Shown: positions 13,669 to 62,974, counted from the stretch's first letter. The stretch: 64,000 nt of DNA from an uncultured Solirubrobacterales bacterium (GCA_963740845.1 CAVUFM010000018.1:345056-409055); one strand, 5' to 3'. Notes: generated from the sequence alone by a model not told the origin. Numbers and translations: made by a program.

Positions 13669-15919
13669 TTACCGTGGGCCGCCCGGCGGCATCGCCACCA
13701 GCATCCGCAGGCGACGCACCGGACCGCCGCCCGCGCTGAGCTCACGGCGGGCCGCCCGCCGCTCTCCGAGGGTGGGCGGGGCTCCCGGGGAGCGGGCGAA
13801 ACGACGCTGGGCGAGCCGCCCCGCGTAGGACGCCGCCGCGGGGAGGTTCAGCCGTTCGAAGTGGAGCTGCACCCGACGCAGCGTCGTCAGCTCCGGATCC
13901 CGGAGCCCGGCCGGGCCCAGCGCTCCCGCGAGCTCACGCAGCTCCCGCTCGGCGATCTCGTCCTCCCCGAGCCGCCGGTGGCGCAGCGTTCGGGCCAGCG
14001 TCAGGAGGGCCAGGAGCGCAGCCAGCACCGCGGGCACCGCAACGAGGGGCAGGAGCGACGAGCCGCCGTCATCCGCGGGGACCGGCTCGCCCCGGATGGA
14101 ACGGGGGCCGCTCCCCGCCGCCTCCGGCGTCGAGCTGCGGCTCGCGACCGCGCGACGCCGCGCGGTCGGCACCGCCGCCACGGCGACCCGGGCCCGCCGG
14201 CCCGGAATCCTCCTCGGCCACCGCCTGCGAGCGGTTCGGGGCTTCGGCGGGCGTCGGGTCGAAGGGCACCCAGCCGATCCCCTCGAAGTAGACCTCGACC
14301 CAAGCGTGGGCATCGAGGCCGGTGACCAAGTAGCTGTCCTGGCCCTGGCGCTCACCCGGGGTGAACCCCGAGGCGACGCGAGTCGGGATCCCGGCGAAGC
14401 GGAGCAGGAGCGCCATCGCGCCGGAGAAGTGCTGGCAGTAGCCCAGCCGATCGTCGAAGAGGAACGCGTTCAGCGGCACCGGACGCTCGGGAGGCGACTC
14501 GCTGTAGTTCGCGTTGTCGCGCACGTAGTCCTCGACGGCGAGGACGGCGTCGTAGGCCGAGGGCTGGTCCGCCGTGAGCCGCCGGGACAGCTCGGCGACC
14601 CGCAGGTAGGGGGAGCCCTCGATCTCCGTCTCCGCCACCGAGGTGAGCGGGATCCCGCTCCCCCAGAGGGGGATCGTGACGCGATGAACCGAGACCAGGC
14701 CGGTTTCGGGGATCGGGAGCGCTGTAGGGAAGCGCGATCTCGGCGTAGCGCCTCAGATCGACCCCGTAGCTCGTCGAACGCTTCCGCATCAGCTCGGGCG
14801 AGGGATCGGGTGCGTAGGCGGTGATCGCGTAGTCGCTGCCCTCCGACAGCGGGTCACCCTCGACGTTCAGCGTCCCGTCTTCGTCGCGGTCGACGCCCTC
14901 GACGCCCGAGAGATCCAGCTCGGTTCCGGGGCTGAGGACCAGCGGGCTCTCCAAGCCGGAGACGGAGACCCGCGAGCGGGTGACCCAGCGGTCGTTGCCG
15001 CGGACCGCGAGCGTCCCCTCGGTCGGGTCGACGTCCTCGGGAACCGCCCGGCCGCCGCTCTCGGAGCGTTGCCAGGCGTAGCCGTAGAACTCGTCGAGCA
15101 CCTCGGCGCGGAGGTAGCGCGGCTCCGCGGTGCGGACCTCCAGGAGCACGTCGCTGGTCCGCTCCCAGTCGATCGGGCCGTAGCTCTGGTCCCATTCGAA
15201 AGTGGAGCCGGGCTGCGGGCTCGGGCAGGCTCCAGTCGCGGTAGTCGAGCACGGGATCGCGGGTGTCGAGCCCCGAAGCGATCGGAACCGCGACCGCGCC
15301 GAAGCAGGCGACCGTCGCGCCGGCGACCACCCAGCGGCCCGGCCGCTGCCACAGCCACAGCGAGATCAGGACGAGCAGGACGGCTCCCCAGAGCAGCGGC
15401 GCCGCCGCCGGCCTGACCGTCGCCGGGACCGCGAACGCGGCGACCAGCACCACCAGCGCAACCGGCGCGGGAGCGGACCGGTCCCGGCGGCCGAACGCCA
15501 GCACCGCGGCGGCCATCAGCAGCACCGGCATCGCGGCGATCAGGAGCCAGCGAGAGCTCGGGTCACCTCCGGCGAAGGGGTAGTCGAAGCTGCCGCTGAG
15601 ACCTTCGAAGCCGTCGTCGACGTCGGCGGCGAGGCCGTCCCAGCCCCACGGCGTCAGCCCGCGTGCGGGGACGCCGAGCGCGACCAGGGCCGCCAGCAGG
15701 CCGAGGACGGCCACGAGGGTGATCGCACCGACCGCCCGCGGCCGCGACAGGCGCTCGAGCGGGAGCGAGCCGAGGGCGATGGCCGCGGCTCGCGATGAAC
15801 GCGACGGCGATCCCGAGGCGGACGAGCGGCGGGTCGGCGAGGAGCGACCCCCAAGCGCCGGCCGCCAGCGCGGCGAACGCGATGAACACCGCCAGTCGCT
15901 GTGCCGAGGGGCGATTCAC
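13669..15919 (-). CDS. transglutaminase-like membrane protein (DUF3488 N-terminal TM domain, TGase core, DUF4129 C-terminal region), at least three frameshifts
   Basis: Pieces sit in ORFs 14854..15714 (TM-rich), 14352..15149, 14069..14638 (TGase core ...GYCQHFSGAMALLLRFAGIPTRVASGF...DAHAWVEVYFEGIGWVPFDPTP) and 13669..14355 (C-terminal region). Confidence 0.7.
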
Positions 15920-48205: not shown

Positions 48206-49565
48206 CCGTCCGCCTCCCCGATCCTGGCGCGCAGGGCGTCGGTGAGCGCCTCGAGGCCGACCGAGCGCGAGCCCTTGATCAGCGCGACGTCGCCGGGGCC
48301 GAGGATCCGCTCGGCCAGCTCAGCTCCGGCCAAGCGGGTCGGGCGCCCACTCGTCGGGCGAGTAGTCGCGGGCGAGGTCGCCGACGCCGATCAGCGGCGA
48401 GATCGCCCAGCTCCCGCGCCCGGGCGGCGATCTCGGCGTGGAAGCGCGGTCCGTCGGGGCCGAGCTCAGCCATCCCGCCGAGGATGCCGACGCGGCGCCG
48501 TGGCGCCGGGACCGACGCGAGGTGCTCGATCGCGGCTCGCATCGAGATCGGGTTGGCGTTGTAGCAGTCGTTCAGCAGGAGGATCTCCCGTGCAAGCTCC
48601 ACCCGCTCGCCGCGCAGGCGCGAGAACTGTATCCGTGACGTCAGCGGCGCCATCTCCCCCGGCTCGATTCCCAGCGCGGTGCCGATCGCGATCGCGCAGA
48701 GGGCGTTGGTGAGGTTGTGCGCCTCCTCGAAGGGGAACGAGAAGTCCGCCTCGCCGAGCGGCGTCGAGATCCGGGCCTCGATCGACCCGCCGACCACCCG
48801 CGCGGAGATCGCGTGGACGTCGCCCCCGGTCCCGAACGTGGTCGTGTCGAGATCCGCTCGCAGGTGCGGCTCGAGCGTCTCCGCCTCGGCCGGGACGACC
48901 GCGCGCCCGTCCGGTCCGAGGCCGCGAAGGATCTCGGCCTTCGCCTCGGCGATCGCCTCGACCGTGCCGAGGAGCTCCAGGTGCACGGGGCCGACGTTCG
49001 TGATCGCGGCGACATCCGGCTCGGCGATCTCGCAGAGCTCGGCGATCTGGCCCATCCCCCGCATCGCCATCTCCATCACGAGGACCTCGGTCTCGGGCGG
49101 CGCGGCCAGCAGCGCGAGCGGCATCCCGATCTCGGTGTTGAAGTTCTCCGGGCTCGCGTGGACCCGCCGCGGCAGGATCGAGCGGGTGATGTCCTTGACG
49201 GATGTCTTGCCGGTCGAGCCGGTGACTCCGACGAGCGGGCAGCCGATCTGCCGCCGCCAGGCGCGGGCGAGGCCCTGAAGCGCCATCAGCGGGTCCTCGG
49301 CCGCGAAGATCCATCCGTCGGTGTCTCCCGGCGCAGCCAGCTCGGCCGCCCGGCCCGCCCCGACGACGACTCCCCAGACGCCGCGCTTGAGCGCCGCCTC
49401 GGCGAAGCGCCCACCGTCGACGCGCTCCCCGATCAGGCCGAAGAAGAGGTCGCCCGGCGCCAGCCTCACGGGAGTCGATCGTCGCCCGCTCGGGCCTGCC
49501 GCCCGTCGCCGCGCTGAAGGATCGTCGCGCCGGCTTCGGCTGCGATCCGATCGGGGTCGAGCTCG
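48202..49565 (-). CDS. murF: UDP-MurNAc-tripeptide--D-alanyl-D-alanine ligase, frame-split
   Basis: ORF 48279..49628 body (...VGVTGSTGKTSVKDI...NFNTEIGMPLALLA...LLNDCYNANPISMRAAIE...); the N-terminus lies in other frames next to the murE stop. Confidence 0.8.
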
Positions 49566-49566
49566 A

Positions 49567-51107
49567 TCACGCGCCTCCCCCCAGTCTGCCCGCCCCGAGC
49601 CGCGCGAGCTCCTCGCGGGCGACGTCACGGTCGTCGAAGGGCTCCTTGCGCCCGCCCTCGAACTCCTGGCCCTGCTCGTGGCCCTTCCCGGCGATCACGA
49701 CGAGGTCACCCGAGCGCGCCTGACCCAGCGCGGTGGCGATCGCTCGCCGGCGGTCGGCGTCGACGACGATCGCCTCGCGGCGTTCCGCCGGGAGTCCATC
49801 GAGCCCTTCGAGCATCTGGGCGATGATCGCCTCGGGATCCTCGGAGCGCGGGTTGTCGGAGGTGACCACGGGGACGTCGGAGAGCTCGGCGCCGGCACGG
49901 CCCATGAGGGGCCGCTTGGTGGCATCCCGGTCGCCGCCGCACCCGTAGACGCAGATCAGGCGCCCTTCGGTGAGTCGCCGGGCCGCGGTGAGCACGTTCT
50001 CGAGCGAGTCGGGAGTGTGCGCGTAGTCGACGATCACCCCGAAGTCCTGCCCTTCGTCGACCGGCTCCATCCGGCCCGGGACGGGCTCGGCGCCGGCGAG
50101 CGCCGCGGTGGCGACGTCGAGGTCGACTCCCAGCGCGCTCGAGCAGCCCAGCGCGGCGAGCGCGTTCTCGACGTTGAAGTGGCCCGGGAGGCCGAGCGTC
50201 GACGTCGCGGACCGACCCATCCGAGGTGCGCAGCTCGAACCGGGAGCCGGTCGCGTCGAAGGAGACGTGGTGGGCGCTCAGGTCGGCGTCGGCCCCCGCC
50301 GCCGAGAACGAGGTCGAGGGCGGCTCGCCCGGCGGCGCGCAGCTCGGCGAGCAGCCCGGCGCCATAGGGGTCGTCGACGTTGATCGCCGCCGCCTCCGGC
50401 GCGATCCCCGCTCCCCCGGGGTCGGGCTCGAACAGGAGCCGCTTCGCCGCGAAGTAGTCCTCCATGTCGGCGTGGAAGTCGAGGTGGTCCTGGGTCAGGT
50501 TGGTGAAGGCCGCGACGTCGAAGGCGATCGCATCGGCGCGGCCGAGGACGAGCGCGTGAGAGGAGACCTCGATCACGCAGGCGCGGTCCCCGGCGTCGAG
50601 CATGCGGCGGAACGTCCGCTGGAGGTCGATGGCCTCCGGCGTGGTGCGGACGACCGGCTCCTCCACCCCGCCGACGACCTGCTTCACCGTCCCGAGGAGA
50701 CCGCAGGACATCCCGGCGGCTTCGAGGATCGTCCGGGTCAGGAAGGCCGTCGTCGTCTTCCCGTTCGTCCCGGTCACGCCGACCATCCGCAGCTCGCGGC
50801 TCGGCTCGCCGAAGAACGCGGCGGCCAGCGGAGCCATCGCGCGGCGGGTGTCGGCGACCAGGACCTGCGGGACGTCGAGGTCGAGCTCGTGGTCGACGAC
50901 CAGCGCCGCCGCCCCGGCCTCGACGGCCGCAGGGGCGAAATCGTGGCCGTCGGCGGTGTGGCCGCGGACGCAGAAGAACAGCGTTCCCGGCTCCACCAGC
51001 CGGTTGTCGAAGGCCAGGTCCGCGATCTCGACCGCGCTCGCGGTCCCCTCGCCGCGCAGCACGCGCGCGGGCAGGCCGGAGCCGTCGAGGAGCTGATCGA
51101 GCCTCAT
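49567..51107 (-). CDS. murE: UDP-MurNAc-L-Ala-D-Glu--2,6-diaminopimelate (or L-Lys) ligase, frameshifted near 50225
   Basis: ORF 50034..51107 (MRLDQLLDGS...VGVTGTNGKTTTAFL...) plus ORF 49567..50220 (...DYAHTPDSLENVL...GCGGDRDATKRPLMG...VVIAGKGHEQGQEF...). Confidence 0.85.
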
Positions 51108-51227: not shown

Positions 51228-52929
51228 TCAGCTCGTCGGGGCGATTCCCAGGTAGGGAAGCGCGAAGCTCGCGATCTCGCCGAAGGCGGGCGCCGCGACG
51301 GTGCCGCCGTAGTAGTCGCCGCCCTTGGGATCGTCGACGATCACGGAGACGAGCAGCTTCGGATCGCTCGGCCGGCGCGAAGCCGACGAACGAGGCGACG
51401 AACTGGGTGTCGGAGTAGGTGCCGTCGATGACCTTCTGCGCGGTTCCGGTCTTGCCGGCGAGCACGTATCCGGGAACCTCGACCTCGGGCGCGGTGCCGA
51501 ACGGCCCGAGCACCCCCTCGAGCATCGTCCGCAGCTCGGCCGAGGTGCTCTCGCTGATCACGCGCGTTCCCTCGGGCTCCTCGACGGGGTCGCCATCGAC
51601 CGACTCGATCAGCCGCGGCGGGCGGAGGGTGCCGCCGTTGGCGATGGCCGCATACCCCTCCATCATCTGCATCGGGGTGACCGAGAGGCCCTGGCCGATG
51701 GGAAGGTTGCCGATCGAGGAGCCGGAGTAGTCCTCGAGCGCCGGGACGATGCCCTGCTCGTCGGGGGAGTACTGGATGCCGGTCGGGTGGCCGAAGCCGA
51801 AGGTGTCGACCCACTGGCTGAAGCGCTCGGATCCCAGCTCGAGGCCGATCGTGACCGCGCCGACGTTCGAGGACTGGGCGAGGATGTCGGAGGTGGTCAG
51901 CGTCCGGTAGCCGAGGCCCTCGTGCGCCTCCTCGATCGTCCGGTCGGCGACCTTGATGGAGGGGCCGACCTCGAACTCGGTGTTGGGCTTGACGGTGCCG
52001 TCCTCGAGCGCGCCGGCGACGGTGAAGGCCTTGAACGTCGAGCCGGGCTCGTAGGTGTAGCCGGTGGGCATGTTCACGGTCTGCTCCGCCGTGGCCTCGC
52101 TGAGGTCCGCCGGGTCGATCTGCGGCCAGCTCGCCATCGCGAGGACGTCGCCGCTCTGCGGGTTCATCACGACCGCCGTCGCGCCCTCGGGGTCGTAGGT
52201 GTCGCCGAGGTCGCTGAGGACCTTCTCGGTGTAGGCCTGGATGCGGCCGTCGATCGTCAGCTGGACGTCGTGGCCGGCGGCGGCGCCGGTGACGACGTCG
52301 CGGCCGATCTCCTGGCCGAGCGCGTCCCTGGTGATCGAGACCTCGCCGTCGGTGCCGCTCAGCTCGTCGTCCTCGTTCGCCTCGATCCCGAAGAGACCCT
52401 GGCCCTCGTCGCCGATCGCGCCGATCATGCGGCCGCCGTCCGTCGCCTGCGGGTACACGCGCCGGGAGTCGGGCAGCTCGCCGATCCCGTCGAGCTCGAG
52501 CTTCCGGACCCGCTTGGCGGTGACGAGGTCGACCTTCTTGGCGAGGTACTCGAAGCCGGTCTGGGCGGTGAGGCTGCGCAGGAGCTCGTCCTCGGGGACG
52601 TCGAGGACCTCGGCGAGCTTCCCTGCGGCCTTCGGGGGATCGACCACCTGGTAGGGGGTCGCGAAGATCGTGGCCGCCTCCTCGGAGACGGCGAGGGCGC
52701 TGCCGTTGCGGTCGAGGATGGAGCCGCGGATACCGGGGACGGTCACCGTCGCGACCTGCTGGTTGCGCGCGTCCGTGGCCAGCTCGTCGCCCTTGACCGC
52801 CTGCAGGTAGGCGGCGCGGGCGAAGACGACGAGGAACGCGACGGCGAAGACCGCGAACAGGAGGCCGGAACGCCTCTCGATCAGCTTCATCGCGAGCGCT
52901 CCCTCACGCGACTCGCGGCCGCTGCTCAC
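51228..52929 (-). CDS. ftsI: penicillin-binding protein (class B transpeptidase, FtsI type), frameshifted near 51370
   Basis: N-terminal TM (LLFAVFAVAFLVVFARAAY), dimerisation domain, transpeptidase motifs STFK (...EPGSTFKAF...), SSN (...AQSSNVGA...), KTG (...AGKTGTAQK...). The true C-terminus ...DPKLLVSVIVDDPKGGDYYGGTVAAPAFGEIASFALPYLGIAPTS* was found by hand translation. Confidence 0.85.
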
Positions 52930-55219: not shown

Positions 55220-55487
55220 GCAGGTTGTGAGCCGGTTGCTTCGAAACTTGTCCCTGTGGGTGTTTCGAAGGCGACGCTGAGAGAGCTGGCCGGAGAGGTG
55301 AGGTGGGAGGAGCCTCGCCCCTCCGGCCTGCTGATCTCAACTGGCGCGGCACAGTAACCCACGTGGACCCACTGCGCAACACACCAACACACCGCGTATT
55401 GGATCGGGTCCGTCGGACGGCATTGCTAGCCGGCTCGCGGAACACCTCCTATCCCGCATGAACTGAGCGCTCTCGGGCGCTTCTGAG

Positions 55488-55512
55488 CGGTGGTGGGGCG
55501 AGGTGGGGCGCT
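55488..55512. promoter_or_regulatory. possible MraZ-box-like direct repeats (GTGGG N5 GTGGG) in the mraZ upstream region
   Basis: ggtggtggggcgaggtggggcgc about 275 bp upstream of mraZ; also gtgaggtgggaggag at 55288..55302. The strand is opposite to mraZ and the match to MraZ boxes is speculative. Confidence 0.15.
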
Positions 55513-55724
55513 TCCTCTGCTGCAACGGCCCTTGCATCGCTCGATAGCCTGCTCGCCGATGGAAGCCGGATCGCAGCCCCCGCCCCCTTCCCCCGAGAGC
55601 GCGGAGTCCCAGGCACCGCCCGGGGAGATCGACCCCGCCGGCGTGGCTCCCTCCATCACCGCCGGCGCCGCTTGACGCCGACGACACCCGCGGGCTCCAC
55701 TTCGGCCGCCTCGCCAAGCACCCG

Positions 55725-56489
55725 GTGACGCTGAGCCTCGGCGCCGTCCTCGTGATCGGCGCGTTCGTCGGCGGCACGATCGGCGCGGGCGCCGCAGTCG
55801 GCGGCGGCGCCGCGTTCGCCGCGGTCCTGCTGGTGCTGCTGATCGTCTTCGTTCTCGCCTCGGGCGCGGCGAAGGAGGACTTCTTCTCCCACTACGCCAG
55901 TGCGCGCGGGCTCAACCGCGCCTCGGGCAAGTCGAGCCTGCCCCCGAGCACCCCGCTTCTGCGCAAGGGAGACCGCCGCTACGGCGAGCAGGTGATGAAC
56001 GGGACGCTGCCGGGCGGAGCCGCCGGCGCACTCGCCCTCTTCACCTACGAGGTGGACACGACCGACAGCGACGGCGATCGCGACACCGACTACTACCGCT
56101 ACACGGTCGTCATGCACGACGTCCCGGCCGTCGCCGCCAAGGTCTCCGACATCAACTGCCAGCGCCGCTCGGGCTTCCGCTTCATGGACGGCGCCGAGGA
56201 CGTCTTCCGCAAGATGCAGCGCCTCGAGCTCGAGAGCACCGTGCTCGACAAGGACTACGAGATCTTCTACGGCGCCCAGGACGACGAGGTCTGGATGAAG
56301 CGCCTCTTCTCCCCCAGCTTCATCGTCTGGATGACCGAGAAGGTTCCCGACGGCTTCGCCTGGGAGCTCTCCGCCGGGAGCCTCTGCGTCTACCGCCGCG
56401 GCCACTACGACAACGCCGCCGACCTCGACACGATCTGCGAGGCCGCCGGCCAGGTCGCCGCCCGGCTCGTCAAGGAAGCCGGCGAGTAG
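55725..56489 (+). CDS. hypothetical membrane-anchored protein
   Basis: N-terminal TM (LSLGAVLVIGAFVGGTIGAGAAVGGGAAFAAVLLVLLIVFVLA) then a soluble domain (...YEVDTTDSDGDRDTDYYRYTVVMHDVP...); no family recognised. Convergent with tadC. Confidence 0.5.
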   Translation: MTLSLGAVLVIGAFVGGTIGAGAAVGGGAAFAAVLLVLLIVFVLASGAAKEDFFSHYASARGLNRASGKSSLPPSTPLLRKGDRRYGEQVMNGTLPGGAAGALALFTYEVDTTDSDGDRDTDYYRYTVVMHDVPAVAAKVSDINCQRRSGFRFMDGAEDVFRKMQRLELESTVLDKDYEIFYGAQDDEVWMKRLFSPSFIVWMTEKVPDGFAWELSAGSLCVYRRGHYDNAADLDTICEAAGQVAARLVKEAGE

Positions 56490-56510
56490 CCCGAGGGACG
56501 CTCGCCCTCT

Positions 56511-57347
56511 CTAGAACGAGGGCAGGATCGAGCCGGAGTTGGCGAGGATCGCCGCCGCGACGATCAGCAGGACCGACGGGACGAGGAGCAGCGCGACGAC
56601 CAGCTGCATCTTCGGCGCGGCGCGGGCGGCGCTCTCGCCGATCGCCCGCCGCTGATCGTCCCGGAGCGACCCCGCCTGCTCGTGCAGCGCGCGGGACAAC
56701 GGTGCGCCATGGCGTCGCGAGCGCTCCAGGGCGGCGGCGACGGCGCCGAGGCTGTCGCCGCGCGAGCGTTCCCGGAGACCGCGCAGCGCCCGCTCCTGGG
56801 AATCGCCGCACTCGATCGCAGCCACGGTTCGCGCAAGCTCCTCGCGCAACGGCCCTCCGGCTCCCCGCATCGCGTCGCCGAGCAGGGTGCCGGGCCCGCG
56901 CCCAGACGAAGCTCCGGTGGCCATCAGGTCGAGTGCGTCCGGGAGGGCGGCCGCAACCCGAGCGCGGCGAATGCGCGCGGCACGCTCCAGCAGCAGGTCG
57001 GGGGCGAGGAACGCGGCCGCGGGCACGGCGACCACGACCAGGGTGCCCAGCCGCCCCGGCGCCACCGGCGCCGCCGCGAGGGCGAAGGGGAGCGAGAGGA
57101 GAACGGAGGCGAGCTTGGCGGCGAGGACGGCGGCGGGGCTGATGCGCGCCTCGAGCGCGGCGGCATCGATCCGGCCCTGAAGCGAGCCGAGCAGCGTCCC
57201 GGGATCGAGCGGGCCGCCGGTCCGCGCGGCGCCGCGACGCAGCTGCCGGCGCAGCTTCCGCCCGATGTCCTCACCCCGCTCCCCCGCGATCTGCCAGAGC
57301 GCAGCGGCGAGCAGGAGCGAGCAGACCGCGGCGAGGAGCGCGCTCAT
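56511..57347 (-). CDS. tadC: Tad/Flp pilus assembly inner-membrane protein (T2SS-F domain, TadC-like)
   Basis: T2SSF-type: ...ALRGLRERSRGDSLGAVAAALERSRRHGAPLSRALHEQAGSLRDDQRRAIGESAARAAPKMQLVVALLLVPSVLL. Confidence 0.65.
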   Translation of the reverse strand: MSALLAAVCSLLLAAALWQIAGERGEDIGRKLRRQLRRGAARTGGPLDPGTLLGSLQGRIDAAALEARISPAAVLAAKLASVLLSLPFALAAAPVAPGRLGTLVVVAVPAAAFLAPDLLLERAARIRRARVAAALPDALDLMATGASSGRGPGTLLGDAMRGAGGPLREELARTVAAIECGDSQERALRGLRERSRGDSLGAVAAALERSRRHGAPLSRALHEQAGSLRDDQRRAIGESAARAAPKMQLVVALLLVPSVLLIVAAAILANSGSILPSF

Positions 57348-58192
57348 GACCGGACCCGGCCGAGCCTGCGGATTGCGAGGAAGCCGCCGAGCTGAAGCGC
57401 TCCGGCCGTCGCGAGCAGGACGACGGCGACCGGGTTCGCGAGCATCCCGGCGACGAAGCCCGGCGAGATCAGCTCGACCATCAGCCCCATGAAGAGCGGC
57501 ATGGCGACGACCATGCCGCCGGTGAGCCTCGCCTGCGCCGTCGCGGATCGCGCCTCTCGCTCGGCGCGCTGACGCTGAGCGGCGGCCACGGCGTGACGAC
57601 GGAGAAGCGCGGCCAGGTCCCCGCCGGAGCGCTCCTGGGAGAGGATCGCGACGACCAGCGCCTCGACCCGATCCGACGGCACGCGGCGGGTCAGCCCGGC
57701 GAGCGCCTCCCGCGCGGGCATCCCGAGCTCGAGGTCAGCGCCGACCCGGGCGAGCTCGACCGCGGTCGGGCCGTCCGTCGCCGTCCCGGCGCCGAGGAGC
57801 GCCATGCGCAGGGAACCTCCGCCGGCAACGGCGTCGGCGATGCCCGCTGCGATCGCCGGTACGTCCCGCTCGACCCGGAGGCGATAGCGCCGCTGCCGGT
57901 GGGCGACCGCCCAGCCCGCAACCGCGGGGCCGGCGACCGCGATGCCGGCCATCGGCCCGATCCCGGCGACCATGATCGCCACGAGGCCGAGGCCGATCCC
58001 GGCGACGACGCCGAGCCGCTGCCGCTCGGGCTCGGTCGGCACCCGGTTCTCGCGCCCGGCAAGCGCAAGGGTCCGGGCCGCCGCCTCGACCTGGCGCAGG
58101 ATGAACGGCATCGTCGCCACCGCCTCCCGCAGCGCGATCGCGACGGCGCCGCCGCCGATCGCCGCGAGCAGGATCGGGAGGGCGGCGCTCAC
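57344..58192 (-). CDS. tadB: Tad/Flp pilus assembly inner-membrane protein (T2SS-F domain, TadB-like)
   Basis: ...ALAGLTRRVPSDRVEALVVAILSQERSGGDLAALLRRHAVAAAQRQRAEREARSATAQARLTGGMVVAMPLFMGLMV. Confidence 0.65.
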   Translation of the reverse strand: MSAALPILLAAIGGGAVAIALREAVATMPFILRQVEAAARTLALAGRENRVPTEPERQRLGVVAGIGLGLVAIMVAGIGPMAGIAVAGPAVAGWAVAHRQRRYRLRVERDVPAIAAGIADAVAGGGSLRMALLGAGTATDGPTAVELARVGADLELGMPAREALAGLTRRVPSDRVEALVVAILSQERSGGDLAALLRRHAVAAAQRQRAEREARSATAQARLTGGMVVAMPLFMGLMVELISPGFVAGMLANPVAVVLLATAGALQLGGFLAIRRLGRVRS

Positions 58193-59334
58193 CCGGCCTC
58201 CGCCGGGCGGACCCAGAGCTCTCGCACGGCCGGCATCCCCGCCACCCGCACCACCTCCGAAAGCGCGACGGCGTGGCGGGCGCCCCGGGGCCCGCGCTCG
58301 AGATGGAGGACGAGGTCGATGGCGCCGGCGAGCTGGTCGCGAACGACCTCGTGGGGAACGCCGAGGCCGGCCATCATCGCCAGGGTCTCGATTCGCCGCA
58401 GCGCATCCTCCGGTCCGTTCGCGTGAACCGTCGAGAGGGCGCCGCGATGGCCGGTGTTGAGCGCCACGAGCAGGTCCATGGCCTCGCCTCCCCTGACCTC
58501 GCCGATGACGATGCGGTCCGGTCGCATCCGCAGCGAGTTCCGCACGAGATCCCGGATCGAGACCTCACCGGAGCCCTCGATCCCCGGCGGGCGGCTCTCG
58601 AGCCGGACGACGTGCGGCTGGCGCAGGCTGAGCTCGGCTGCGTCCTCGATCGTGATGATCCGCTCGCCCGGCTCGATGAAGGACGAGAGCGCGTTGAGGA
58701 CGGTCGTCTTCCCCGAGCCCGTGCCGCCGCTGACGATCAGGTTGCGGTGCTCGCCGACCGCCTCGCGGAGGCGCTCGAGGAGCTCGGCGTCGAAGGTGCC
58801 GCGCCGGAGCAGCTCGGCGGGGTCGGGCCGCAGGCCCGCGAAGCGCCGGATGGAGAGGGCCGGGCCCTCGACCGCGAGCGGCGGGATCACGACGTTGACC
58901 CGGGAGCCGTCGGCAAGGCGGCCGTCGGCCATCGGGCTGAGCTCGTCGACGCGACGACCGATCGGCCCGAGGACCCGTTCGATCACGTCGCGGAGCTGCG
59001 ACTCGTCGGCGAACGCGACGTCGGTGCGCACGAGCCGGCCGCGCCGCTCGATCCAGACCTCCTCGTGACCGTTGACCATCACCTCCTCGACCTCGGGATC
59101 GCGAAGCAGCTCCTCGAGCGGGCCGAGCCCGACCGTGTCGCGCAGCACGCGGTCGGCGAGCTCATCGCGTCGCTCGGGCGACAGGAGCGCGGCATGCTCG
59201 TCGACGATGCCGCGAACGGCCTCGGGCAGCTCGGTCCGCTCGCGCGTGCCCGCGACTGCGGCGGCGCGGCGCTGCTCGACCAGCCGCCCACGCAAATCGC
59301 CCGAGAGGATCTCGACGTGATCGATGGGACTCAC
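58189..59334 (-). CDS. cpaF: CpaF/TadA-type secretion ATPase (type II/IV secretion NTPase)
   Basis: ...HRNLIVSGGTGSGKTTVLNALSSFIEPGERIITIEDAAELSL... Walker A and B, ...GHRGALSTVHANGPEDAL...; 381 aa. Confidence 0.9.
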   Translation of the reverse strand: MSPIDHVEILSGDLRGRLVEQRRAAAVAGTRERTELPEAVRGIVDEHAALLSPERRDELADRVLRDTVGLGPLEELLRDPEVEEVMVNGHEEVWIERRGRLVRTDVAFADESQLRDVIERVLGPIGRRVDELSPMADGRLADGSRVNVVIPPLAVEGPALSIRRFAGLRPDPAELLRRGTFDAELLERLREAVGEHRNLIVSGGTGSGKTTVLNALSSFIEPGERIITIEDAAELSLRQPHVVRLESRPPGIEGSGEVSIRDLVRNSLRMRPDRIVIGEVRGGEAMDLLVALNTGHRGALSTVHANGPEDALRRIETLAMMAGLGVPHEVVRDQLAGAIDLVLHLERGPRGARHAVALSEVVRVAGMPAVRELWVRPAEAG

Positions 59335-59399
59335 GCCTCCCAGAACCCCGGCGGATGCCGAGGCGCCCCCCGCAACTCGAGGCGCCTATCCTCGAGAGC

Positions 59400-59919
59400 G
59401 ATGGCTCAGGTCGAAGTCCTCGACACCGACATCACGACGCTGGAGGTCGATGCGATCGCCAACGCGGCGAACACGCAGCTCATCCACGGCGGCGGCGTCG
59501 CCGGAGCGATCTCACGCGCCGCGGGGCCTGAGCTCGACCGCGAGAGCGAAGCGAAGGCGCCGATCGGCCTCGGGGAGGCGGTCGAGACGACCGCCGGCGA
59601 GATGCCGTGCCGATGGGTCATCCATGCGGCGACCATGGAGCTCGGAGGCCCGACCTCGGCGGAGATCATCGGCCGCGCGACGGCATCGACCCTCGTCCGC
59701 GCCGACGCGATCGGCGCGACGTCCCTCGCGCTCGTCGCCTTCGGCACCGGCGTCGGCGGCTTCCCGCTCGGCGAGGCGGCGCGGATCGAAGCCGCCGAGC
59801 TGGCTCGTCATCTCGCCGCAGGATCGGGGCTCGAGCGCGTCGTCTTCGCCGTCCGCGGCGACGAGGCGCGGGAGGCGTTCGAGCGCGCCGTCGCGGACGC
59901 CGGTCTCGCGGCCGGCTGA
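59400..59919 (+). CDS. macro domain protein (O-acetyl-ADP-ribose deacetylase / ADP-ribose-binding)
   Basis: MAQVEVLDTDITTLEVDAIANAANTQLIHGGGVAGAISRAAGPEL...WVIHAATME... macro motifs. It is the only plus-strand gene inside the Tad-like locus. Confidence 0.85.
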
Positions 59920-59928
59920 CTCTCATCG

Positions 59929-60590
59929 CTAACCCGCCGGGATCAACCGCACCTCGCGGGCGAAGTTCTCCGCCTCGATCAGCTCGAGCGCCTGCTCCCT
60001 GCTCAGCGCGAGCGTCGCGCTCCAGCTGTCACCCCCGACGGCGGCCTCCTCCGGATCGGCGGGCTCGAGCGCGATCAGCCGGACGCCCTCGGCGGCGACC
60101 CTGACCCGGGCGCGGCCGCCGGTAACCGGCTCCCCCGCGACGACCACGTCGACCCGTGCGCCAGGCGCGCCCGCGACCGAGGTGAGCGCTCCGGCGCCGG
60201 TGACGACGATCTCGACCGGGCTGAGGTCGCCGCCGAGCTCCGGTCCCGCGGGCTCGGGGCCACCGGGTAGCCGCAGGTGCGATGCGAGCAGGTAGGAGCC
60301 GGCGGGGATCGGCGCGAGAACCTTGCGGCCCAGCGCCTCGCCGGGATCGATCAGCGCATCGGGCGGTGCGAAGCGGACGGGTACCTCGCGAAGCTCCAGC
60401 GAGCGATCGAGCCGTCCGCTTGCTCAGCGGCCGCCCCGGCTCGAGCGTCTCGGCGACGACGACCACCGTCCGCAGCTCCCCGAGCTGGGCGTCGACGCTG
60501 TCGCGGTAGCCGGAGGCGATGCTCGCCGAGGCGACCGCGCAGAGAACGGCGAGGGTCGCGAAGCCGATCGCCTTCCCGCGTCTGCTCACC
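59929..60590 (-). CDS. cpaB: Flp pilus assembly protein CpaB/RcpC-like (SAF domain), frame-split
   Basis: N-terminus ...RRGKAIGFATLAVLCAVASASIASGYRDSVDAQLGELRTVVVVAETLEPGRP (ORF 60029..61036 frame). C-terminus ...RVRVAAEGVRLIALEPADPEEAAVGGDSWSATLALSREQALELIEAENFAREVRLIPAG* (ORF 59929..60147). Confidence 0.55.
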
Positions 60591-60639
60591 GCGGCGCTGG
60601 TTCCTCGGGCGCCGGGAGCGACAGCGCCGCGACCGTGCC

Positions 60640-61262
60640 CCCGCCCGCGAGGCGGCGCGGGAGCGAGCAGCGTGCCGCCGTGCTCGGCCGCCGTCATCGC
60701 CGCCACCGCGAGGCCGTGCCCGCGGCGAGGGTCGCGCGGCTCGGCGGGTGAGAGCCGGCCGCGAGCCACCGTCGCGAACCTCGAAGCGGACCGCTCCCGA
60801 CGAGGACATCGCCCTGACGCTGACGTCCCCCTCCCCGTGCTCGACCGCGTTCGCGACGAGGTTGTCGAGGGCGGCTCCCAGGGTGGCCGGATCCGCGTCG
60901 AGGCAACGCCCGGCGACGGGCGCGGAGACGTGCACGCCGGCGAAGCGCCAGCGGTCCTCGAGCGCCTCGGTGATCTGACCGATCGCCGTTCGCACCGGCG
61001 TCCGCGCGAGCACGCGGCGGTTGATGGCGGCGTCAAGCTCCTCGAGCGCGCCGCGCGCCTGCTCCAGGCAGGCGCCGGCGCAGACGAGATCAGGGTGCTC
61101 GCCCTCGATCGAGAGCGAGATGGATTGCAGGGGCCGGCGCAGCTCGTGCATCGCCCGGTTCAGCCGGACGGCGCGGCGCAGGGCGACGACGACGCGTGCG
61201 ATCTCGATCGCGGCAACCGCGAGCACGAGCAGCGGCACGATCACCTGAGCTCCGGCGCTCAA
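60640..61262 (-). CDS. small membrane-anchored histidine kinase (single TM + HisKA + HATPase_c); TTG start overlaps the regulator stop; 3' boundary approximate
   Basis: ...LSAGAQVIVPLLVLAVAAIEIARVVVALRRAVRLNRAMHELRRPLQSISLSIEG...LDNLVANAVEHGEGDVSVRAMSSSGAVRFEVRDGG... inside ORF 60351..62315. Confidence 0.65.
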
Positions 61263-61975
61263 GGCGATCCCTCCACGAGGCGGTACCCCACCCCCCAGCA
61301 GTTGACGACGAAGCGCCCGCCCGGATCGAGCTTGCGGCGCAGGCGGCTTGCGTGCGAGTCCAGCGTCCGGGTGCGTCCCAGCGTCTGGTAGCCCCAGACC
61401 TCGTGCAGGAGCTCGGACTTGGTGAAGACCGTCTGCGGCTCGCGAGCCAGCGCGCGCAGGAGCTCGAACTCCTTGTTGGCGAGCTCCACCCTCCGGCCCG
61501 CCACCTCCACCGCGCGCGAGGCGAAGTCGATGCTGAGCTCGCCGATCCGCGTCGGGCCGGTGCGCGCGCGGCCCCGGCCCTCGATGAGGTTGCGGAGCCT
61601 GATCAGGAGCTCCCCGTACGCGTAGGGCTTCGCCAGGTAGTCGTCGGCGCCCTCGCTGAGGCCGCGGATTCGCTCGTTCTCCCCGCTGCGGCCCGAGAGG
61701 ATCAGGATCGGCAGGCCCGCGTCGAAGAGCGGCGCGACGTCGTCGCTGCCGCGGATCTCCCGCATCACGTCGAGGCCGGAGGCGTCGGGAAGCCCGAGGT
61801 CGAGGAGGAGCGCGTCGGGAGCGTGGTAGCGGCAGAGCCGCAGCGCCTCCTCCGCGGTCGCCGCCGGGATCGCCGTGAACCGGTCCTCGGCGAGGTTGCG
61901 GCAGAGCTGGGAGCGGGTGTCCTCGTCGTCCTCGCAGACGACGACCGCGGCGAGCTTGGGGACGTTGGGGAGCAT
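61259..61975 (-). CDS. OmpR-family response regulator
   Basis: Receiver domain (VVVCEDDEDTRSQLCRNL...ALLLDLGLPDASGLDV...ILSGRSGENERIRGLSEGADDYLAKP) plus winged HTH (...LANKEFELLRALAREPQTVFTKSELLHEVWGY...). Confidence 0.9.
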   Translation of the reverse strand: MLPNVPKLAAVVVCEDDEDTRSQLCRNLAEDRFTAIPAATAEEALRLCRYHAPDALLLDLGLPDASGLDVMREIRGSDDVAPLFDAGLPILILSGRSGENERIRGLSEGADDYLAKPYAYGELLIRLRNLIEGRGRARTGPTRIGELSIDFASRAVEVAGRRVELANKEFELLRALAREPQTVFTKSELLHEVWGYQTLGRTRTLDSHASRLRRKLDPGGRFVVNCWGVGYRLVEGSP

Positions 61976-61981
61976 GTCCCT

Positions 61982-62315
61982 CTAGACCCCGCGGCCGGTC
62001 GTGGCGCCCCCCGCGGGCAGCTCCAGGACCGACGACGGCGGCAGCTTCGCGCGCGAAGCGCAGCGGCCGCAGCCTGACGCGGCGGATCTCCAGCCCCTCC
62101 CGGTCGAGGAACACGACGTCGATCGGGAATCGCATCCCGAACGTGTGGACGGATCGGCATCGCGGCAGGAGCAGCCCGGGCCCGGCGCGGTCGCGGCGCA
62201 GGAGCGCCAGACCGAGCAGGCGCGTGCGGAACGTGGTCGCCAGCGGGACGGCGACACCGAGCGCCCAGCCCCTCGGTGAGGAGGCGAAGCGGCGGGGCAT
62301 CGGCGGTAGGCTCAC
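61982..62315 (-). CDS. DUF192 family protein (common in Tad loci), frame-split
   Basis: VSLPPMPRRFASSPRGWALGVAVPLATTFRTRLLGLALLRRDRAGPGLLLPRCRSVHTFGMRFPIDVVFLDREGLEIRRVRLRPLRFA... then ...SSVLELPAGGATTGRGV* in ORF 61982..62257. GTG start with GAGGAGG upstream. Confidence 0.5.
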
Positions 62316-62509
62316 ACCTCCTCAATCCCGGCGAGCGTTTCCAAGCCCCGGCCCGACCGCCTAGCCGTCGACGCCGACCTCCGCTTTCCTCCCCGGGCTT
62401 TTTGGGTGCAAGCCTGCGTTCACCGAGGGGGTCTCGGCCCTCCCCGCGACGGGGCTTCGGACAACATGGTCCGCCCGCCCGCTGAACCAGCCCGGCGGCG
62501 TTTCGTCCC

Positions 62510-62974
62510 ATGGAAAGAGCTACACGCAGAGGCAACTACGAGTCGGGCTCCGACTACGTCCTCGAGTACGGGGAGCTTCGCTTTGCCTTCAACGAGAACG
62601 ACTTCAGCCAGCGGGTCGAGCAGGCCGCGGTGAAGCTCGACTTCACCCACCCGGGCCTCGGCACCGAGGAGCTGCACGACCTCGTCGAGCTCGCCGTGAA
62701 CGGTGAGATCCGCGAGCCGGCCTCCTCCCTCGGCGAGCACGTCAACGAGAACTGGGGCGAGCTCGTGGACGGCTCCCAGCGCAGCCTCGTCCACTGGATC
62801 CGCCGTCTCGTCTTCCGCGGCGCCTGGCTCGACCAGCGGGTCAAGGAAGGCGAGCTGGACATCGTCTTCGACGACAGCACCAACACCTTCGGCTACGTGC
62901 AGCCGGACCGCGACTGCGAGCCGATCGAGCTCTCACGCGAGCCCTCCTGGGGCACCCTCGCCTACCGCCGTTAG
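62510..62974 (+). CDS. hypothetical acidic protein (154 aa)
   Basis: MERATRRGNYESGSDYVLEYGELRFAFNENDFSQRVEQAAVKLDFTHPGLGTEELHDLVELAVNGEIREP...; no family recognised; terminator hairpin downstream. Confidence 0.45.
   Translation: MERATRRGNYESGSDYVLEYGELRFAFNENDFSQRVEQAAVKLDFTHPGLGTEELHDLVELAVNGEIREPASSLGEHVNENWGELVDGSQRSLVHWIRRLVFRGAWLDQRVKEGELDIVFDDSTNTFGYVQPDRDCEPIELSREPSWGTLAYRR

Follow-up and report, generated by a model that had tools for sequence, protein, structure and literature searches.

What a Tad secretion machine can serve when no pilin gene accompanies it is the question raised by positions 55,725 to 62,509 of a 64,000 nt stretch of DNA (GCA_963740845.1 CAVUFM010000018.1:345056-409055; hereafter the window, meaning the whole stretch) from an uncultured Solirubrobacterales bacterium. 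The minus strand of this locus carries, in order, genes for a DUF192 protein, an OmpR-type regulator, a mini histidine kinase, CpaB, the ATPase CpaF/TadA, and the platform proteins TadB and TadC, with a macro-domain gene on the plus strand between cpaB and cpaF. It is set in DNA of approximately 72–77 % G+C, beside the cell-division (dcw) genes of a soil actinobacterium. We give about even chances to the reading that it is a Tad (type IVc pilus) core, cut down but functional, inherited vertically and specific to Solirubrobacterales, which is regulated by its two-component system and uses pilins encoded elsewhere in the genome. Tad pili are usually viewed as self-contained, horizontally mobile 'colonisation islands', whilst here a cut-down core has been kept for a long time at one core-genome place, wired to a minimal two-component system, in an order of abundant and poorly studied soil actinobacteria.

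Conservation of the motor, platform and control genes

The gene order and orientations proposed in an earlier note on this DNA were borne out, with Pfam support for each named gene (Table 1). Start and stop codons overlap through the whole series of minus-strand genes, including, as that note had said, the TTG start of the kinase gene at 61262 and the regulator stop codon at 61259-61261. The ATPase matches Pfam T2SSE at 193 bits and has intact Walker A, Asp box, Walker B and His box motifs; no second secretion ATPase lies within the 64 kb window. At 381 aa it is some 70–80 aa shorter than the canonical TadA proteins of the same taxonomic order (451–463 aa). Of the NCBIfam models, TIGR03819 (the 'helicase/secretion neighbourhood' TadA model) fits it best, with 327.5 bits, which is short of the cut-off of 373. 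A special affinity on this account was rejected, as canonical TadA matches the same model slightly higher, and the canonical TadA proteins of two Solirubrobacterales Tad loci (L048 and L059; loci compared are denoted by L and a number) likewise fall just under the cut-off. TadB and TadC match T2SSF at 51.8 and 53.4 bits, and are 85 and 79 % identical, respectively, to their counterparts in L081, the closest relative found. Two separate platform proteins with a single T2SSF domain each are a hallmark of Tad/Epd systems (PMC6668835), and here the two genes are adjacent and overlapping, each with one such domain. CpaB consists of a transmembrane helix, a SAF domain (38.5 bits, above the cut-off) and a divergent RcpC domain.

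The regulator retains the acidic pocket and the phospho-Asp and Lys motifs (LLLDL, AKP), and is 48–76 % identical across 16 loci. The kinase, after correction of its reading frame, displays HELRRPL, DNLVANAVEH, RDGG and GHGL as H-box, N-box and G-boxes. The pair thus contains the kinase boxes, a receiver with its phospho-Asp and a winged-helix output domain that together define a two-component system, whilst no NCBIfam equivalog reached its cut-off for either protein. A single N-terminal hydrophobic helix of the kinase (residues 1–32) leads directly into the H-box (His 39), with neither an extracytoplasmic nor a cytoplasmic sensor domain. Since it has no such domain, the kinase, as one helix fused to a catalytic core, would sense only intramembrane signals or a partner protein. 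Its homologues (top 120) measure 139–290 aa, mostly 217–230 aa, with identities of up to 76 % and coverage of up to 99 %.

Frame breaks interrupt the genes for DUF192, the kinase (twice) and CpaB, and the flanking gene unk254, so that these are not continuous open reading frames (ORFs). The breaks were located by three-frame translation, by a frame plot of G+C at third codon positions (GC3) and by tblastn with intact orthologues (L001, L002 and L081); the earlier note had overlooked them. Outside the locus, ftsI is broken near 51367, murE at about 50200-50337, and murF near 48405 and 48320, and the window holds at least 11 frame breaks in total, nine of which lie between 48 and 64 kb. A further gene, at 14225-15669 (14.2–15.7 kb), reads in three frames. 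In L081 no gene of the locus is broken; elsewhere, the kinase, DUF192 and cpaF to tadC are single ORFs in both L001 and L002, as is CpaB in L002. DUF192, the kinase and CpaB were assigned their domains on frameshift-corrected reconstructions that match intact orthologues from end to end, and the reconstructed kinase (223 aa) aligns with its homologues across 99 % of its own length, which supports the correction.

With regard to relatives, a survey of one genome per species returned 13 loci of the same gene order, labelled nearly throughout as Solirubrobacterales or Conexibacteraceae, and no identical locus; four more (L081-L084) came from the contexts of kinase homologues. Counted together, 17 other Solirubrobacterales loci have this arrangement, which as a rule is flanked by rho and mraZ. 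The order of genes that they share is rho, nfeD, unk154 (opposite strand), DUF192, regulator, kinase, cpaB, macro (facultative, opposite strand), cpaF, tadB, tadC, unk254 (facultative, opposite strand), mraZ, rsmH, ftsL, ftsI and murE. Of the related loci, 16 are long enough for the regulator–kinase pair to be seen, and all of them have it, together with the block from regulator through kinase, CpaB, CpaF and TadB to TadC; in 12 of the 14 whose flank is sufficient, mraZ is found a short way downstream. The alternative raised in the earlier note, that of an ordinary tad fragment, with a canonical flp-tadV-tadZ set elsewhere in the genome and with two-component and macro genes unconserved at this position, is contradicted as regards the two-component genes; the macro gene is facultative. 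One of the relatives, L002 (JAQBGG010000017.1), bears the label of an Acidobacteriota metagenome-assembled genome (MAG), yet has full Solirubrobacterales synteny (DUF192 to tadC, unk254, mraZ and rsmH) and 50–76 % identity to the window; this contig is probably misbinned. Two others, L008 and L009, have 8 kb of flank past tadC in which neither mraZ nor rsmH occurs, so the link to dcw is broken in at least one sub-lineage.

The ATPases of L001-L012 and the window form one clade in 100 of 100 neighbour-joining bootstraps, separate from 67 other TadA/CpaF proteins, other Solirubrobacterales included. CpaF and RsmH rise and fall together in their identity to the window (r = 0.95, n = 12), in agreement with vertical descent alongside the core genome. 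Ratios of non-synonymous to synonymous substitution (dN/dS) against L081 are 0.15 for CpaF, 0.13 for TadB, 0.16 for TadC, 0.32 for the regulator and 0.31 for the macro protein, with 0.20 for RsmH and 0.40 for MraZ as comparators; the catalytic motifs of ATPase, kinase, regulator and macro protein are all present. The separate ATPase clade, the co-variation with RsmH, the low dN/dS and the intact motifs together indicate, at the level of sequence, a locus that is functional and vertically inherited.

Absence of pilin genes from the locus and the possible role of the core

Pilins were sought as G-x4-E-[YFW] followed by a hydrophobic stretch in stop-to-stop six-frame translations, for which no start codon is needed, in the window, in 15 syntenic loci as the orthologous set and in 67 non-syntenic Tad loci as controls. 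No Flp/TadE motif occurred in the window or in any syntenic locus, whilst 40 of the 67 controls were positive (Fisher p, syntenic versus control, 1.4e-5), and tblastn with the TadE of L059 gave no significant match in the window or the syntenic loci. Queries with two Solirubrobacterales TadZ proteins (tblastn) similarly found none in the window and 0 of 15 in the syntenic set, as against 45 of 67 controls (p = 9e-7); nor does the window hold a ParA-type P-loop (KGGxGK[ST]). For TadV, the A24 peptidase signature GxGDxK, required to lie in hydrophobic surroundings, was found in neither the window nor the 15 syntenic loci, and in 25 of the 67 controls (p = 0.004). That pilin, prepilin peptidase and TadZ are missing, as first noticed in the locus alone, consequently holds for the whole window and for the 15 orthologous loci scanned. 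The missing TadV had been counted as an oddity; it is normal for actinobacterial tad loci, from which TadV is typically remote, and Micrococcus luteus is also without TadZ (PMC4322843).

If the locus is a cut-down pilus core, the TadA hexamer would drive the TadB/TadC platform to polymerise Flp-type pilins, and these, along with pseudopilins and the peptidase, would be encoded and processed elsewhere in the genome, as in the two-locus pilus of M. luteus. The operon would be under the control of the regulator, which, once phosphorylated by the kinase, would turn it on, on the model of the tad genes governed by PprAB and by the Pectobacterium system. The existence of pilin-bearing canonical Tad loci (L048 and L059) in the same order was counted in favour of pilin supply from elsewhere. 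Several observations weigh against this reading. No pilin, pseudopilin or peptidase could be linked to the locus in any genome, and among the top 120 matches listed (two TadZ queries) no contig has both the mini-kinase and a canonical TadZ. An operator or promoter for the regulator was searched for and none identified. The CpaB protein is divergent, scoring below the cut-offs of both RcpC (24.4 bits; cut-off 28.8) and TIGR03177 (53.6 bits; cut-off 71), whereas the canonical CpaB of L059 reaches 66 bits for RcpC. The tad-1 locus of M. luteus keeps TadE/F-like pseudopilins and TadG, whilst the present locus is without any pilin-like gene. Finally, Tad systems are reported to be nearly always encoded at a single locus, and even generic type IV filament systems need an ATPase, a platform and a pilin (PMC6668835); the first two are present here and the third was not found in the locus.

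The same absences, consistent as they are across the 15 scanned loci and the window, and the want of any listed contig with both kinase and TadZ, would suit a pilin-independent, repurposed machine, in which CpaB, TadA, TadB and TadC act on some other membrane or envelope substrate under their own two-component control, perhaps tied to envelope growth or division. We hold this to be possible, if rather unlikely. The separate clade and shorter length of the ATPase speak for it, as does inheritance beside dcw in the manner of core-genome genes, unlike that of Tad loci in general, which are commonly mobile islands (PMC6668835). It has to contend, however, with the lack of a conserved candidate substrate gene in the locus, where both unk254 and macro are facultative, with an adjacency to dcw that is positional only and missing in L008 and L009, and with the fact that every retained part is a standard part of pilus assembly. 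Just as tentative is the picture of a pilin-free, core-genome envelope machine with a non-pilin substrate, its sensor-less kinase reading the machine's own state and its work possibly kept in step with wall growth or division, a link suggested by the position of the locus just upstream of mraZ. Two explanations draw instead on the frame breaks. That the frameshifts in DUF192, kinase and CpaB are genuine, and the locus a decaying remnant in the course of being lost from this strain, is scarcely credible: five breaks do fall within 7 kb, concentrated in the regulatory half of the locus, but breaks of the same kind are seen elsewhere in the window in ftsI, murE and murF, essential cell-wall genes not all of which can be inactive, and orthologues of the locus are intact, which points to sequence errors; split genes of the same kind, the same artefact, occur in the long-read MAG loci L005 and L021; no break affects cpaF, tadB or tadC, whose dN/dS is near 0.15; and the broken genes still conserve their sequence away from the break points. 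The breaks are, judged by these comparisons, assembly indel errors and not pseudogenes. The window looks like an unpolished long-read assembly, with gene models corrupted by indel errors that need comparison with orthologues.

Errors on this scale, at least 11 breaks, together with the very small size of Flp genes, which are easily lost, leave a very slight chance that a pilin in the locus was overlooked, being non-canonical or hidden by sequence errors. The motif scan, though, was independent of start codons, and the two spacers of the locus with room for a small ORF (55220-55558 and 62316-62509), at no more than 340 nt, contain none that is pilin-like or hydrophobic. Intact short-read relatives (L001, L002 and L081-L083) show no pilin either, and independent gene calls on L081-L084 place no small gene inside the operon. 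A working role for the macro protein, for example in reversing the ADP-ribosylation of a Tad component or of the regulator, is improbable on present comparisons. In its favour, the gene occupies the same junction in 10 of the 18 loci (window counted), at 65–75 % identity and under the constraint given above (dN/dS 0.31), and shares a 66 nt divergent spacer with cpaF. It is nonetheless absent from 8 of 18 otherwise identical loci, including those of close relatives (L001, L005 and L082-L084), and none of the 67 other Tad loci has it; its strand is opposite to that of the operon, and in several loci that carry it the junction has also accepted a further, unrelated 0.8–6.4 kb. Because the gene is facultative and its junction takes other insertions, it is probably a long-resident, lineage-specific passenger that splits the operon.

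What stands of the original description of an atypical, regulated Tad variant is, therefore, a conserved, order-specific, pilin-less and TadZ-less core with a minimal two-component system; DUF192 and the two-component genes have precedents elsewhere, and the macro gene, present between cpaB and cpaF as had been placed, is facultative.

Layout of the locus and its accessory and flanking genes

Table 1. Positions of the genes and spacers of the Tad-like locus, counted from the first nucleotide of the window
Feature	Position	Strand	Remarks
DUF192 gene	61982..62315	-	Start GTG 62315 or ATG 62300; frame break ~62031-62035; Pfam match on corrected sequence
OmpR/PhoB-type response regulator	61259..61975	-	Intact, 238 aa; Pfam Response_reg and Trans_reg_C
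Mini histidine kinase	60586..61262	-	~223 aa, TTG start; breaks ~60757 and ~60667; Pfam HATPase_c
CpaB-like protein	59929..60589	-	~218 aa; GTG 60589 overlaps kinase stop; break ~60400
Macro-domain gene	59401..59919	+	172 aa; convergent with cpaB, divergent from cpaF; Pfam Macro
macro/cpaF divergent spacer	59335..59400	.	66 nt
TadA/CpaF-type secretion ATPase	58189..59334	-	381 aa, intact; Pfam T2SSE
TadB platform protein	57344..58192	-	282 aa, one T2SSF domain; start overlaps cpaF stop
TadC platform protein	56511..57347	-	278 aa, one T2SSF domain; start overlaps tadB stop
unk254, unknown membrane protein	55559..56489	+	Convergent on tadC; frame broken ~55600-55665
DUF192/unk154 divergent spacer	62316..62509	.	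Presumed operon promoter and conserved element TGAACG-N5-TTGCA
unk154, orphan 154-aa protein	62510-62974	+	Conserved neighbour

Wherever the macro gene splits the operon, the spacer between it and cpaF must hold a promoter for cpaF-tadB-tadC. This spacer contains no match to the sigma-70 consensus; sigma-70 and terminator scans of the locus yielded nothing useful, and an Rfam scan of 54.5–63.5 kb gave no match.

The macro protein itself is a clear member of its family (Pfam Macro, 92.3 bits; cut-off 22) and displays the ADP-ribose-binding motifs NAANTQLIHGGGV (NAAN..GGGV) and GTGVGGFP (GxGVGGFP). All NCBIfam models of O-acetyl-ADP-ribose deacetylases remain below their cut-offs, the best equivalog reaching 108.6 bits as against 200. 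Where present, the gene always sits at the exact cpaB/cpaF junction and on the opposite strand; where it is missing, cpaB directly adjoins or overlaps cpaF. There are two insertion hot spots amongst the relatives, one at cpaB/cpaF (L004:3546-10001, L006, L008 and L010) and the other at the flanks of DUF192 (L001, L005, L007-L010 and L082-L084), which harbour, depending on the lineage, macro, membrane proteins, major facilitator superfamily (MFS) transporters, TetR regulators or a cupredoxin. In several relatives, inserted transporter genes separate DUF192 from the operon.

The DUF192 protein scores 34.2 bits against Pfam DUF192 (PF02643; cut-off 27) in its frameshift-corrected form, the break having displaced the conserved C-terminus ...VLELPAGG. 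Amongst its orthologues, a full DUF192 match is on record in L082 and L084 and a weak one in L081; a search of PDB sequences with the protein returned chance-level matches alone. The earlier note had taken this gene for an atypical addition. The same cytoplasmic subtype, with the motif RLxGLLGR...PCxSxHTxGMxFPIDVxFxD...ELPAG, was nevertheless found by tblastn inside or adjoining 16 of the 67 other Tad loci (L016, L019, L022, L023, L026, L030, L044, L048, L051, L052, L058, L061, L063, L069, L074 and L076), about 12 times right after tadC, and these loci come from Clostridia, Eremiobacterota, Terriglobia, Omnitrophota, Thauera and Bacillales. A DUF192 gene also ends the tad operon of Bulleidia extructa (PMC12786226), and DUF192 looks like a recurrent, under-described accessory Tad gene.

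Converging on tadC, unk254 is rich in Pro at its N-terminus, contains a PLDADDTRGxHF motif and two hydrophobic segments, and has a domain of approximately 200 aa at its C-terminus; it belongs to no Pfam or NCBIfam family. It had been described as a membrane-anchored protein encoded at 55725..56489, and whilst the convergence on tadC is correct, the start is not: a conserved N-terminal part (MEAGSQPPPP..., then PLDADDTRGLHFG) lies in another frame upstream of 55725, and translation probably begins near ATG 55559. By tblastn, unk254 has matches in six related loci (L001, L002, L005, L081, L082 and L083), hence 7 of 18 with the window, and an unannotated gene of 309 aa occupies its position in L084; no match was found in L007, L010, L011, L012 or L021, in which the tadC–mraZ junction is covered. 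At this junction L081 carries two tandem unk254 paralogues that are 42 % identical (L081:15163-17171). Given a neighbourhood that is only semi-conserved, unk254 is probably not part of the machine.

On the other side of the locus, unk154 is the most conserved gene of the neighbourhood, with 78–95 % identity in 12 loci and a dN/dS of 0.10. It has no Pfam or NCBIfam match, a PDB sequence search gave chance-level matches alone, and a single-sequence AlphaFold model reached a predicted local distance difference test (pLDDT) score of 60.6, too poor for a fold search. Some 90 nt upstream of its start (62360-62440) runs the series TGAACG-N5-TTGCA ... GGAGGAA(A/T)GCG ... GCGTCGACGG.TAG. The core of this series, TGAACG-N5-TTGCA (near 62422 in the window, minus strand), is the only conserved intergenic element, being shared by the window and 11 of the 12 loci that have unk154, and has no Rfam match. 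It was considered as an operator for the regulator and rejected, as it travels with unk154 and not with the tad operon, staying beside the former when DUF192 is displaced.

Comparison with known Tad systems

Full-text literature searches on DUF192 and on Solirubrobacterales pili gave nothing on the locus studied. A Tad-derived apparatus put to a use other than adhesion, some of whose parts are encoded separately, is known in Myxococcus xanthus, where the Tad-like Kil machinery brings about contact-dependent killing of prey. Kil, unlike the locus described here, belongs to a diderm and includes a secretin and identified pilins, and the two display no relation in gene order or regulation.

Closer in regulation are the tad genes of Pseudomonas aeruginosa with PprAB and the flp/tad genes of Pectobacterium, where two-component genes also adjoin tad and control its transcription (PMC3510237, PMC3767616). 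The dedicated two-component system that the earlier note singled out is thus conserved in every locus able to show it, but is not without precedent. Both of these loci encode full Tad systems of diderms, in which pilin, peptidase, secretin and TadZ are all present; sensor domains occur in their kinases, and the regulators are of other subfamilies, whereas here a sensor-less kinase of about 223 aa is co-transcribed with cpaB. The tad operon of Bulleidia and the 16 multi-phylum operons mentioned above share with the present locus the same cytoplasmic DUF192 subtype linked to tadA/B/C; DUF192 follows tadC in operons of the Bulleidia type, whilst here it precedes the regulator.

For the absence of pilins, the nearest parallel is the competence pilus of M. 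luteus, a single pilus whose assembly calls upon two widely separated tad loci; TadZ is lacking and TadV is encoded at a distance (PMC4322843; PMC6916266). One of the two loci, tad-1, is without a major Flp pilin, and its tadA/B/C are still needed for the pilus made from the pilin of the other locus (PMC4322843). As here, this is an actinobacterial monoderm Tad system with no TadZ in the locus and with one locus lacking a major pilin; unlike here, it lacks CpaB, DUF192 and linked two-component genes, and does not lie beside dcw.

Within the Solirubrobacterales themselves, L048 and L059 represent canonical monoderm Tad loci, arranged as flp (Flp_Fap), tadE, cpaB, tadZ (ParA-like), tadA, tadB fused to VWA, and tadC. 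Their TadB proteins (L048:11236-13116, 626 aa; L059:11133-13454, 773 aa) carry an N-terminal von Willebrand A domain (Pfam VWA_2 and T2SSF). Both loci come from the same order as the locus studied and encode the same kinds of ATPase, platform proteins and CpaB. They differ in possessing Flp_Fap and TadE, a ParA-type TadZ, a TadA of 451–463 aa and the VWA–TadB fusion, and in having no two-component system, and their ATPases, which are 53–54 % identical to that of the present locus, fall outside its clade. The locus studied is, by these sequence measures, a distinct, smaller paralogue of the canonical Tad loci of its order. If it shares pilins with a canonical locus, the two-locus model of Micrococcus would be extended, and a natural case provided for why a second ATPase–platform set is kept; if it shares none, the core would represent a repurposed type IV filament motor.

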